Source: Eledone cirrhosa (Eukaryota). From it: a stretch of 64,000 bases of DNA. Numbering within the stretch: position 1 is the stretch's first letter; every line of letters starts with the position of its first letter. The translations under genes and the position numbers were made by a program. Location: positions 185,566,001-185,630,000 of the forward strand of contig OZ024740.1 in the NCBI GenBank assembly GCA_964016885.1, given 5' to 3'. The notes below the pieces were generated by a model that did not search any database, had not been told where the DNA came from, and saw nothing but the letters and a program-made list of their open reading frames with translations. Shown one piece after another: positions 14,597 to 64,000 of the stretch.

Positions 14597-15028
14597 AGAA
14601 ATGTTATTTAGCACAATAATGTACCAAATCGTTTCATGTTACCAATGGACGTAACAGTGCTATAATATAATTACTACTCAATATAATTTCCAAACAGTAC
14701 CGACAAGAGTTTTGTTACAAACTTAGGAAATCATCCTGAATAATACTGTTAGGTTAATGTGTAATCGCTGTTGTCAACTACAACTGATATATATATATAT
14801 ATATATATATATATATATATATATATATATATACACACACACACACATATGTATATATATATATATATACACATATATATATACACACACACACATATGT
14901 ATATATATATATATATATATATATATATATATATATAAATATAAGTATGCAAATTAGGCTGCCCAGCCGTTAATATCCATAAGGAAAGTATACACTTTCA
15001 GACGTTCAATCATCTGGCAGGAAGGTAT

Positions 15029-15071
15029 ACGTTGCTGACGATAGCTAATAAGCTTGAAACTAGTACATCGT
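15029..15071 (+). ncRNA. Type I minimal hammerhead ribozyme (copy 1)
   Basis: acgttg-CTGACGA-t-agct-aata-agct-t-GAAA-ctag-TA-catcgt. Core intact, palindromic stem III ACUAGU, GUA site after 15065, one U.U mismatch in stem I. Confidence 0.78.
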
Positions 15072-15457
15072 TCCTTGTCAGTGTTGAACAAATGAGCAAC
15101 GATGGTTGCTAGACACTGTACGGCTTAATTCGGGATGTTTGATTACAAACACACCGAGCATTATAATAAATATTCGGTGAATCCATACGTACATATATAT
15201 ATGTGTGCATGTATGTATATATATATACATACTACTGTACGTCTGTATACATATATGTATGTACGTATACATACGTATATTTAAGTAACAGCTGTACCAA
15301 GAGTGAGAAATGAAATTTCGTTTCATTTGTTCCGTTTATCGTTTTCGGTGCGCCCGGCCGATTAACTCACTCAATATGCAAATGATGCTGCTCAGTCGTT
15401 AATATGCATAAGGAAAGTATATACTTTCAGACGTTCAATCATCTGGCAGGAAGGTAT

Positions 15458-15500
15458 ACGTTGCTGACGATAGCTAATAAGCTTGAAACTAGTACAGCGT
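15458..15500 (+). ncRNA. Type I minimal hammerhead ribozyme (copy 2)
   Basis: acgttg-CTGACGA-t-agct-aata-agct-t-GAAA-ctag-TA-cagcgt. 6-bp stem I (one G-U), GUA site after 15494. Confidence 0.85.
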
Positions 15501-15790
15501 TCCTTTGTCAGTGTTGAACAAACGAGCAGCGATGGTTGCTGGACACTACGGCTTAATTCGGGATGTTTGTTTACAAACACACCGAGCATTATAATAAATG
15601 TTCGTTGAATCCATACGTACATATATATATGTGTGCATGTATATATATACATACTACTGTACGTCTATATACATATATGTATGTACCTATACATACTTAT
15701 ATGTAAGTAACAGCTGTACTAAGAGTGAGAAATGAAATTTCGTTTCATTTTTCCGTTTATATATATATATATATATATATATATATATAT

Positions 15791-15981
15791 TTATTTATTT
15801 CTATACACAACAAAGGTGAACTATAACGCACCAGAGTACTCAATGACTACGGTAGTAGAGTGGGTAATAGGAAAAGAGTCAGGACTCCGACGGCTGAGCT
15901 CCGGCCGTTTCAATAGGTGGATTCGAGTTCCGATCTGCATGCCGAATAGGCCAGATCTCAACCGTTGAGATCCTGACTCTG
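15791..15981 (-). mobile_element. Short (TA)n-nested element with 3' half of a hammerhead
   Basis: Minus strand 15911-15885 reads GAAA-cggc-cggagctca-gccg-TC-ggag. Inverted repeat gagtcagga/tcctgactc (15876, 15971). Related sequence at 63958-64000. Confidence 0.6.
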
Positions 15982-61042: not shown

Positions 61043-61474
61043 CTAAGGCGGGTAAAATTCCAGAGATCCATGGACGAGTTCTCTCCAGCGGTCTCTGTCC
61101 CTCATTATCGCTGCCATGTCCAGCGTCTCCAACAGACAAGTGTCTGTCCTTAGGGCATCAACATACGTTAACCTTGGTCTTCCTCTTCTAGTGTGTCCAT
61201 GTAGGGACTCCCAAAGGAGCACTGAGTGCAATGTCAACTCTGGATGTTGGTGAGCATGTCCAGCTAACCTCAGTCTCCTCTGTGTCACTTTTGAGATGAC
61301 TTTTGGGATGCTCCTATACAGCTCTGAGTTTTTCATCTTCAGTGTATACTGATTAATGTTCAGAGCCATCCACAGCATTCTCGTGTAGCACCCATCCACC
61401 ATCTGAGTGAGTTTCTTGGTCAGTGTCCAAGTCTCAGACCCATACAGCAACACAGACTCCACTACAGCAATGAA
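61043..61474 (-). mobile_element. 5'-truncated RTE-like LINE (ORF C-terminus, open frame) inserted in (TA)n
   Basis: AVVESVLLYGSETWTLTKK...DGCYTRML...RRLRLAGH...HGHTRRGRPRLTYVD; TA tracts at 60979-61041 and 61476-61487. Confidence 0.88.
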
Positions 61475-62015
61475 GTATATATATATAACGAATGGTTTGC
61501 AAGTGCGCACAGAAGATAATTTATAGTATCTCCGCGCATTAACTCAACATTTTTTATATTGACTTTATCTTCTCGGTGCTCCGTAATAATCCCTCAGATC
61601 GCCTAGGTATACATGATATATATATATATATATTTTATTTATAACTGTAAATTATACATGAGTTAGCACGGCACAAGATGGTATAAGGCAACAAAACCGG
61701 CCCCGTGATTCAAACCAAGTGTCTAGCATATACTGAATCACCACATTACCGATTACGTTACAATGAGCTAGACAATGTAGTAATCATAAACTTCTTGCCG
61801 GACAAACGAACAATCTTTACCTTTTCGTGTTTCGCATGAAGATCTCAACTACTTGAGTAGCTAGTTATATTTAACCAACTAGTAGGCGAATTGATCTAAT
61901 GATAATTAACATAGTCCTGTTAATACTGACATTTTTCCCTGACCTCCAAAAATATATATATACCGGTGAAAATCTTTGTTTTCCATCTATACACATTCAA
62001 GTTCGGCGTTAGAGA

Positions 62016-62199
62016 AATAATTGTTTCTACTTTTGGCACAAGGCCAGCAATTATCCAGTGTATTACTGGTACTTTATTTTATCGACCCTATAAGGATGAA
62101 AGGCAAAGTTAACCTCAGCAATATTTGAACTCAGAATGGCAAGGGCCGTAACTCTATGCGTCAAAGCATGGCGTCCTAGCCTCTACCGATACTGCCAAT
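62016..62199 (-). mobile_element. SINE, subfamily B, near full length
   Basis: Reverse complement of attggcagtatcggtagag...cttgccattctgagttcaaat...gtagaaacaattatt. Confidence 0.9.
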
Positions 62200-63972
62200 G
62201 TGAATAGAGCCGCTCAAAAAATCGAACCACATATCTACCATAAACTGAACAGTTACGTTACTGGCTAAATGATAAAGACGTGCATGATTTTAAATATTAA
62301 AATAGTACTCAGAATATTCTTATGTGTAAGCTTTCATCTCGCACATCTCTTTAGACGCATGTGTTCCGTGCGCGAAATGCTATATGTAGGTCAATCAGAG
62401 TCGATGGGATTTATACTTAACCATGCTTCACTAAGTGGGCTTGAATCTGAAACAACAAAGTTTTGAAGTGAGCTAATTCAGCACACAGTCATGTGCTCAT
62501 GTTGTTCATCTTAACCACATACAGAGGAATGTTAACACAGGTATAACATATATTCACATCATGCTAATATATATCTAAATCAACCGGAATGGTAAATAGC
62601 AATTTATATTTCATTCTTTTATATCTAATAGTGTTCTGCTTTAAGAGATTGATAAAATATCTCGATTCCTTTCGCTGGAAACTACTATATTGCACGCTTA
62701 TATTCATTTTGATAAACCTTCCTTCATATTGATTTGATGAAATAGAAATTGTCTTTTTTTAATTAAATTGTCTATAACGCAATATTGGTCACACAAATTA
62801 AATAAAACCTGTTTAAATATTTGTGCGGCTTACACACACACACACACACACACACACACAAGGTATATACATACCTTATATATCGATATATCTTTATATA
62901 TATGTGACTCTTGTTCTCACCCATTTGTCAGCAGATTTATACCTCATTTTTTTCACATTGAATTCTTAATCTCTGAAACGAATGGTAGACTATACAAGAG
63001 TAGCCGCCAACTGTTCTTAGATATTATTTTGAGAGTGTAGTCGTACCTAAAATGTTAATTGCGTCTCATTTAGTTATTTACATAATATATTACTGCTAAT
63101 ATTTGTATCGTATTTATTTCATAACCATAAATCATTTACACAAAATAACACGGCAGTCCATTAGTGAATGGCCAACCAAATAAGGTGACGTAATATTTCT
63201 TCGGCTAATACATTCAAATTCACGATAATCTACACGATCTTTGAATTAGTTTGCCGTTTTTGCAAACCTTATTGATCAGCAGCTGGTTTTACCGAACATA
63301 CGACACGCTTTGATTAAACGTGTGTACTTGCTGTTATAGATGATTATCTTCCCGGTTGAATTTGATTGTCTTTCGTATTAATATGATTTAGATACTGAGG
63401 ACAGTTGTAATTAATGGCATCGCATGACTGTTTTTTTTTTAATCGGCGTCATTTTCCAACATATGGACGCAATTATATATATCAGCATGTTCCTTTTCAT
63501 ATGGTTTCTTCGATCATTTCAGAAAAAAATGTATGGTATGTGATATCTATTGGTAATGCATTATCTGTTTACTTATTGATGCGTCTGGTATATTCTTCAT
63601 TTATATGCCCAATTATATATAGTTTGATATTATTAAAACACAACTAGAAGTATAACTAACTCTATATAGCACGGTGTCTCTCTTGTCATCTTATAACATA
63701 TACATATACTTATATACACACACATTCCCCCCCCTCTCTCTCTCTCTCTCTCTATGCCTCTCTCTCTATGCCTCTCTCTCTCTCGGTGTACATATGTATA
63801 CAGAGAAAGAGAGAGACAGAGAGTATATACTGAATTGACGTTACTTTAATTTACGTTGCATCCACGCTCGATTATTTCTATGAAAAATATTTGAATATGA
63901 CGCAGTAGATAAGAATAAGTGTGGAGAGTCTCGCCAGTAGGAACTTGAATATATATATAGGAAAGTGTTTGA

Positions 63973-64000
63973 CCCCGACGGCGGAGCTCAAGCCGTTTCG
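63973..64000 (-). ncRNA. 3' half of a probable hammerhead, cut by the window edge
   Basis: Minus strand: c-GAAA-cggc-ttgagctcc-gccg-TC-gggg; homologous to 15885-15911. Confidence 0.5.

Follow-up and report, generated by a model that had tools for sequence, protein, structure and literature searches.

The 64,000-nt stretch of Eledone cirrhosa DNA analyzed here (contig OZ024740.1; hereafter, the window) contains six complete type I hammerhead ribozyme motifs that belong to four families (A to D), as well as pieces of a fifth family (E). We are highly confident in the following interpretation: the motifs are type I hammerheads located at the 3' ends of Penelope-like elements (PLEs) of three families (B, C and E) and of two non-coding repeats (A and D), and a PLE endonuclease (EN) and reverse transcriptase (RT) likely placed all of them in (TA)n tracts that existed beforehand. 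The division between both classes comes from their coding links: B, C and E continue upstream into open reading frames (ORFs) with RT and GIY-YIG domains, while A and D do not. A further conclusion, which we consider probable, is that the 425-nt retrozyme of family A, with over 24,000 cores in the genome, and the 2.3-kb element of family D are true non-autonomous partners of TA-targeting PLEs, whose enzyme would nick (TA)n and prime cDNA at two UA-containing RNA sites.

Hammerhead motifs in the window

A previous sequence-only reading of the window had claimed six complete hammerheads with type I topology, a palindromic stem III and an NUA cleavage triplet. Descriptor scans recovered the six motifs. 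Five were matched by a strict descriptor, compared with a mean of 0.013 matches (maximum 1) in 300 block-wise dinucleotide shuffles, and the six were matched when one helix mismatch was allowed. All six are of type I and carry a palindromic stem III (ACUAGU, ACCGGU, ACGUACGU or AUGAUCAU) and a GUA or AUA triplet. The hallmarks of the class (C3/U3-UGAN-G8/A8-A, GAAA, NUH, and three helices closing in helix I) are found in the window motifs. The core has the U3-A8 form in B and C, and the U10.1-U11.1 form is present in A and D. Stem I is weak in families C and D, with two and three contiguous pairs, respectively, and copy 1 of hammerhead A has a U-U mismatch within it. In copy 1 of hammerhead A, cleavage is predicted to occur 3' of position 15065.

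The same reading had described two halves of a fifth family. The one at 15885 is indeed a 3' half; the one at 63973, in contrast, belongs to a complete motif that the window edge interrupts. When the neighbouring DNA was read, a complete U3-A8 hammerhead was found at window-equivalent positions 63972-64067, with the core UUGACAA at about 64056-64062. The idea that family E might not be a hammerhead was rejected, as a U3-A8 core and a long helix II were found; a search for the CUGAUGA core had given 16 heterogeneous matches. A degenerate motif that had escaped the earlier reading was also detected at 16078-16144, and the family defined by its stem III (AUGCGCAU) has five intact relatives in the random sample described below. 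An Rfam E-value scan of the window yielded 105 matches, none of them to a hammerhead family; hence, Rfam does not provide a test for these variants.

Abundance and diversity of hammerheads in the genome

One hundred random 10-kb stretches were taken from 20 contigs, which together account for 2.59 of the 3.0 Gb of the genome. This random 1 Mb contained 53 motifs in 26 stretches, forming 38 clusters, compared with 1 in 10 shuffles, so that an excess over shuffled sequence is observed both in the window and in the random sample. The bootstrap range for motif density was 33-77 per Mb, and six further stretches beyond the random 1 Mb contained eight motifs. The estimated genome total is about 160,000 motifs (100,000-230,000); this is a lower bound, given that family E goes undetected by the descriptor on account of a bulge in helix II. 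Since some 3.4 motifs would be expected in 64 kb at the average density of the genome, the window is typical and cannot be viewed as a hotspot. Genome-wide searches for exact cores gave 24,157 matches for family A, 11,050 for B, 1,534 for C and 3,693 for D, and 4,038 and 111 complete copies for the younger and the older subfamily of E; every search with a reversed-pattern control gave 0.

A diverse ribozyme population had been anticipated from the window, and the motifs of the random 1 Mb fall into 19 families. Their stem III shows 17 sequences and is a perfect palindrome in 47 of 53 motifs; the core is C3-G8 in 49 and U3-A8 in four, and U10.1-U11.1 is the commonest form (18/53). A downstream AATAAA, proposed as a shared trait, is enriched, since it occurs within 40 nt of 14 of 51 motifs versus 3.6% of random sites. 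It is not, however, common to all: the AATAAA of family A is about 105 nt away in the downstream direction.

Coding PLEs as the source of families B, C and E

The sequence-only reading found support in viewing the motifs as PLE-type hammerheads and in placing the copy at 32181 in the 3' untranslated region (UTR) of a GIY-YIG PLE. Its view that all other copies are non-coding derivatives was not supported: B and E correspond to the 3' ends of coding PLEs (Neptune- and Hydra-type, respectively) whose long ORFs are present at other loci, and only for A and D was no coding parent found. As 3' ends of coding PLEs, the motifs of families B, C and E represent truncated or fold-back insertions and not separate non-coding elements.

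In family C, a sense PLE ORF lies about 300 nt upstream, with no TA tract in between, in 15 of the 24 cores examined. The window copy is 97.6% identical to a natural copy (locus L254) that has an 857-aa ORF containing both RT and C-terminal GIY-YIG; a similar arrangement is found in ORFs of 689-710 aa in L262, L264 and L267. The translated L254 frame displays DKT, CxCX5C, CxxC and CxH. Families C and E have DKT instead of DKG, a CxCX5C linker, and CxxC and CxH motifs flanking E and N. At the N-terminal RWK position family E shows RWR; in family C this region is outside the reading frame shown. Pfam recognition of GIY-YIG in the Hydra-type ORFs was weak for C (E 0.035), and no match was obtained for E.

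In family E, a Hydra-type ORF is found 0.6-1.2 kb upstream, again with no intervening TA tract, in 11 of the 30 cores examined; none was found upstream of the younger-subfamily copy at the window edge (L078). This link comes from the younger subfamily, and the older one was assigned by kinship. The ribozyme has a helix II of about 54 nt and a hairpin stem III. In close divergent pairs, 25-35 nt separate the two GAAA in 17 of 24 cases (most of them retrieved with a fold-back query; 3/5 in the random sample), which indicates that inversion takes place inside helix II. Inversion points of the older subfamily cluster in helix II and vary from copy to copy, as if each fold-back had originated from its own snap-back. 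In a first look, 3,195 fold-back half-ribozyme candidates were detected versus 111 exact complete copies; hence, fold-back halves of the older subfamily appear to be far more numerous than complete copies.

Family B was connected to one Neptune ORF with its UTR at four loci (L015/L260, L022/L261, L305 and L309). In L309 the order is hammerhead-ORF1-RT/EN-hammerhead, with an ORF1 of 332 aa, and in L305 a 770-aa frame contains Pfam RVT_1 and GIY-YIG domains above the cut-off. Neptune features found in family B include DKG, a CX2-5CxxC linker, a C-terminal GIY-YIG and an upstream ORF1; clades were assigned by motif, and Neptune and Nematis have the linker in common. The 3' UTR is about 1 kb long and rich in microsatellites, and most sampled copies are ends of 150-400 bp. 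The fold-back present in the window bears a tail of about 61 nt on its minus arm and none on its plus arm.

Other PLEs were observed in the sampled DNA. A third PLE of Hydra type, found in L213 (about 300-2350, reverse), has a long RT-EN frame that is 26% identical to the EN region of family C. The RT frame in L257 (2008-3375), also PLE-type, represents a different group and is about 23% identical to family B.

Families A and D are non-coding repeats

The family A unit (430 nt, GC 0.37) has no ATG ORF longer than 82 aa and no match to PLE proteins. Units are arranged in arrays, 420-500 nt apart, with one type I hammerhead each, and 61 of 129 distinct cores run on into the next unit. Family A thus has the traits of a retrozyme: tandem units of 150-450 bp, a type I hammerhead in each of them, lack of ORFs, and GC under 50%. 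Dimer cleavage in tandem transcripts is predicted to yield unit-length or circular RNA. A second retrozyme-like array, with seven hammerheads spaced 312 bp and stem III ACGCGU, was observed in L109 (5507-7379); its flanks are unrelated to family A.

The 3' tail of family D continues into its own 5' start, thus closing a unit of 2,281 nt with no ORF over 121 aa. This size is beyond that of short tandem retrozymes (150-450 bp), and a single close same-strand pair, 1,978 apart, was found among the first 100 places. On sequence grounds, family D would work like a non-autonomous PLE more than like a classical retrozyme. A fixed 5' end at 49271 was considered for this family and discarded as a query-limit artefact: family D extends about 1.2 kb further.

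We also considered whether A and D, instead of being copied in trans, might be long 3' UTR or pseudo-long terminal repeat (pLTR) pieces of coding PLEs whose ORF-bearing copies were not sampled, with A having expanded locally as a minisatellite. Family B provides a precedent, as it also seemed non-coding in the window and its ORF was reached in only 2 of the first 15 loci. A 2026 preprint (10.64898/2026.07.22.740005) derives retrozymes from pLTRs and permits local tandem expansion. In addition, a 3' part of family D is fused to an inverted Neptune-type EN fragment, 58% identical to that of family B, in L042 (about 900-1500; also in L203). However, no continuous upstream ORF was found in any of 64 5'-most cores of A or 27 cores of D; two sense matches were obtained for each family, all across a TA tract. 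Furthermore, the A arrays run unit into unit up to an inversion point or TA, D closes as a unit devoid of long ORFs, and neither inversions nor the two-site ends described below are expected in arrays expanded by unequal crossover. We therefore view this explanation as improbable, and favor non-autonomous partners of PLEs. The L042 fusion, a single case, might be a template switch that points to the partner of D.

TA tracts and insertion footprints

The proposal that TA tracts serve as landing sites gained support from the random sample: a (TA)≥8 tract was found within 300 nt downstream of 36 of 50 motifs, and upstream of 14 of 50, compared with 11.4% of random sites (three of the 53 motifs were excluded for being too close to the end of the stretch). 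For other dinucleotide repeats the excess was small or absent (CA/TG, 7/51 motifs versus 7.5% of random sites; GA/TC, 0/51 versus 2.8%).

In every family, 3' ends fall at two sites that are located downstream of the ribozyme and adjoin TA. Of the 68 terminal copies of family A, 59 reach to either about 218 or about 274 nt beyond the cleavage site, two positions separated by some 56 nt, and 46 of these 59 ends abut TA; the insertion in the window ends at the second site. The two sites of family D are about 140 nt apart, and alignment at the longer one is blurred by TA in the reference. Inverted pairs tend to use one site per arm (9/12 in family A, 11/11 in family B). Where the continuation of the template is known, TA microhomology of 3-5 nt was found at five of six sites. 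A tail signature of this kind has been described as unique to PLEs and tied to two RT start sites (PMC11167929).

A tentative mechanism can be envisaged from these footprints. The GIY-YIG domain would nick both strands of a TA tract, and each nicked end would prime reverse transcription at one of two internal RNA sites, aided by the TA microhomology. RNAs of A and D would be copied in trans. Early truncation and snap-back would leave short ribozyme-bearing ends, thereby explaining why motifs far outnumber whole elements.

A different view is that the TA tracts are not pre-existing targets and were made or lengthened by the insertion itself, by slippage of a telomerase-like RT. The RTs of PLEs are sister to telomerase RTs (PMC8557442), element ends abut TA exactly, fold-backs are TA-flanked on both sides, and most start sites show TA microhomology. 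On the other hand, some copies end with little or no TA, and published work treats (TA)n as a preferred target (PMC8557442). Moreover, of the 542 (TA)≥10 tracts counted in the random 1 Mb, only 67 adjoin the end of a recognized ribozyme element (12%, a lower bound), and most TA tracts are thus left unexplained by these elements; the same adjacency was found in 6 of 87 CA/TG tracts, 1 of 54 GA/TC tracts and 8 of 2,000 random 45-mers. A first count of 26% was discarded because a short interspersed element (SINE) in one library segment had inflated it. We consider it unlikely that insertion made the tracts, and pre-existing targets are our preferred interpretation.

Two additional observations concern the tracts. 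In the random sample (L094-L193), (TA)≥6 tracts make up 3.7% of the DNA, with 1,543 tracts per Mb. Ends of different PLEs are often stacked in a single TA tract (L194, L276, L299).

Conservation of the ribozyme

Covariation of stems in the presence of a conserved core was found among genomic copies, with few independent events within a family. In 131 copies of family A, pair 3 of stem I is U-G in 93, G-U in 20 and A-U in four, and N7 is the most variable position of the core. Contigs from sequencing run X1 show variants of at least 10% at N7 and at two positions of stem I, and the rest of the core, helix II and helix III are free of them; as X1 may be the source sample, these variants are not independent support. 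Low-depth contigs of family A also occur in two runs labelled as other organisms. Among the sequencing runs listed as carrying such sequences none is of RNA, which is uninformative about expression. Across families, pair 1.1/2.1 has three Watson-Crick forms, although the descriptor demands pairing there. The catalytic fold was not the minimum-energy structure when an A monomer was folded with RNAfold or two copies were cofolded; an extended helix I and helix II were seen, and such predictions are uninformative on tertiary folds.

The motifs might also be carried along as fossil passengers devoid of any catalytic function, in which case recent copying would explain why they look conserved. Copies are 93-98% alike, stem I of families C and D is reduced to 2-3 bp, PLEs of the Naiad type spread despite lacking hammerheads (PMC8557442), and cleavage was dispensable in vitro for an anole PLE (PMC11167929). 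Against this explanation, the core is retained in 19 unrelated families with differing stems, stem I of family A shows two-sided changes, and N7 varies while adjacent core positions do not. Such conservation is a sign of selection acting on the source lineages and does not extend to every single copy. With this proviso, we find the fossil passenger explanation rather unlikely; the ribozyme has likely been under selection in the source lineages. Self-cleavage is predicted to occur as dimers in tandem transcripts, with most solitary copies inert.

Several observations weigh against the interpretation presented above. No partner has emerged for A or D by UTR similarity: A shows no similarity to the UTRs of B, C and E, and D shows only low-complexity matches of about 30 nt to them. 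Motif matches are not independent (53 matches make 38 clusters), and TA-like runs within the family A unit inflate the TA test. Three of the 12 inverted pairs of family A break the two-site rule, and in family B the long arm was selected by the query. Microhomology is only 1 nt in family C, and the anole PLE primed without homology (PMC11167929). As for catalysis, minimal PLE hammerheads cleave poorly in vitro (PMC4209133), eight of nine Xenopus retrozyme dimers failed to cleave (preprint 10.64898/2026.07.22.740005), and hammerhead mutants left insertion of the anole PLE unimpaired in vitro (PMC11167929).

Relationship with known elements

Hammerheads in PLEs and targeting of TA have been published before, as has a Hydra element of octopus that combines the two (PMC4209133, PMC8557442). 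The idea that the ribozyme population of the window was likely unannotated therefore holds in part only: Hydra-1_oBim of Octopus bimaculoides, which combines (TA)n preference with a hammerhead, is found in the supplement of PMC8557442. The new members reported here, as classified from their sequences, are three PLE families, one retrozyme and one 2.3-kb non-autonomous element.

Families C and E resemble Hydra-clade PLEs, including Hydra-1_oBim (Craig et al. 2021, PMC8557442), in their single ORF with RT and C-terminal GIY-YIG, in DKT, CxCX5C and CxxC/CxH, and in (TA)n insertion, a 3' hammerhead, inverted copies and tails. However, the core listed for Hydra-1_oBim is C3-G8 and those of C and E are U3-A8, which makes them different families; family E differs also by its long helix II, its hairpin stem III and the many fold-backs inverted inside helix II. 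Family B shares with Neptune-clade PLEs (PMC8557442) the DKG motif, a CX4CxxC linker, the upstream ORF1, a pLTR-ORF-pLTR tandem (L309) and microsatellite targeting. It is classified here by motif as a new family and has a microsatellite-rich 3' UTR.

The motifs are similar to the minimal PLE hammerheads described by Cervera and de la Pena (2014, PMC4209133), which are of type I with palindromic stem III, may have U3-A8 cores, are mostly solitary, form opposite-strand pairs 100-700 bp apart, and include many families per genome. Differences concern abundance, about 2,000-9,000 motifs in Schistosoma, coelacanth and Xenopus versus the number estimated here (with different descriptors), and the commonest form, which is G-C there and U10.1-U11.1 here.

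Family A is akin to non-LTR retrozymes (Cervera and de la Pena 2020, PMC7229834; Li et al. 2026, preprint 10.64898/2026.07.22.740005) in its tandem non-coding units of about 425 nt with GC under 50%, in the single type I hammerhead per unit (helix I of 6 bp, helix II of 4 bp) and in its coexistence with PLEs. (TA)n targeting, 5' inversions and a two-site tail are added by the arrays described here. Family D, rarely tandem, is far beyond the 150-450-bp range of such retrozymes. Retrozyme copy numbers of about 5,000 in mussel and as many as 120,000 in axolotl have been reported (PMC7229834). In the text consulted, mobilization of retrozymes by PLEs has been argued from co-occurrence and pLTR phylogeny, not from footprints (PMC7229834; 2026 preprint), and microhomology at priming sites differs from, or adds to, the anole PLE study (PMC11167929).

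The word 'ribozyme' does not occur in the available text of PMC13282606, devoted to repeats of Octopus vulgaris. In the literature searched, mostly without subscription papers, we found no hammerhead survey of octopus or other cephalopods and no retrozyme tail signature, nor any report of hammerheads on the present scale or of the footprint of the retrozyme.

Features and other contents of the window

Coordinates are compiled in Table 1.

Table 1. Hammerhead motifs (stem I to stem I) and ribozyme-bearing elements in the window.
Feature	Position	Strand	Description
Hammerhead A, copy 1	15029-15071	+	core CUGACGA, stem III ACUAGU
Hammerhead A, copy 2	15458-15500	+	stem I 6 bp, stem II 4 bp
Hammerhead B	24720-24757	-	U3-A8 core UUGAAAA, stem III ACCGGU
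Hammerhead B, inverted copy	24833-24870	+	descriptor match
Hammerhead C	32181-32215	-	U3-A8 core UUGAGAA, stem III ACGUACGU, ~300 nt past ORF stop
Hammerhead D	50200-50255	+	core CUGAUGA, stem III AUGAUCAU, long helix II with mismatch
Degenerate hammerhead, another family	16078-16144	+	stem III AUGCGCAU, core CUGAUGC (A9 changed)
Hammerhead E 3' half, older subfamily	15884-15911	-	inside fold-back 15806..15982
Hammerhead E 3' part, younger subfamily	63960..64000	-	continues beyond window edge
Family A	14945..15757	+	head-to-tail pair of ~425-nt non-coding units, flanked by TA tracts (non-LTR retrozyme)
Family B	24583..24946		fold-back insertion of Neptune-type PLE 3' end, TA both sides
Family C	31961..33944	-	5'-truncated, frameshifted Hydra-type PLE: RT thumb, GIY-YIG EN, 3' UTR; abuts (TA)24
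Family C, inverted partial copy	33943..34251	+	ORF end and UTR start, hammerhead absent
Family D	49271..50310	+	5'-truncated copy of ~2.3-kb non-coding unit, TA both sides
Family E, older subfamily	15806..15982	-	fold-back of PLE 3' end, inversion inside helix II

Other repeats were noticed in the window. A recurrent fold-back element with no recognized hammerhead lies between TA tracts at 31709-31905; similar elements are found in L018, L022, L194 and L201, and the L022 copy is located just before a Hydra-like ORF fragment. A broken Helitron-like remnant occupies about 29100-31385, with a PIF1 helicase domain at 30401-31105 (E 4e-55), and a fragment with a partial match to a DDE transposase is found at 19514-20011 on the minus strand. 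The minus-strand fragment at 61043-61543, without a Pfam match, resembles the RT end of a long interspersed element (LINE). One SINE-like repeat with many copies appears at 8283-8668, 14441-14597, 34850-35240, 38991-39345 and 62016-62199, and we take it to be one present in octopus genomes.

Significance

Mobilization of retrozymes is still presented as a hypothesis (PMC7229834; 2026 preprint). Family A brings together, in one genome, a footprint considered unique to PLEs (PMC11167929), predicted RT start sites and long-ORF candidates for the partner enzyme, and hence makes retrozyme mobilization testable in an existing in vitro assay. For cleavage screens, no fewer than 19 natural hammerhead families per Mb are available in the genome. 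With regard to annotation, at least 12% of the long TA tracts are flanked by the end of a ribozyme element, in a genome from which Rfam reported no hammerhead in the window. If A and D are true partners of TA-targeting PLEs, their ends would provide direct insertion-footprint evidence for the movement of animal retrozymes, in a genome with on the order of 150,000 hammerheads, one per about 20 kb.

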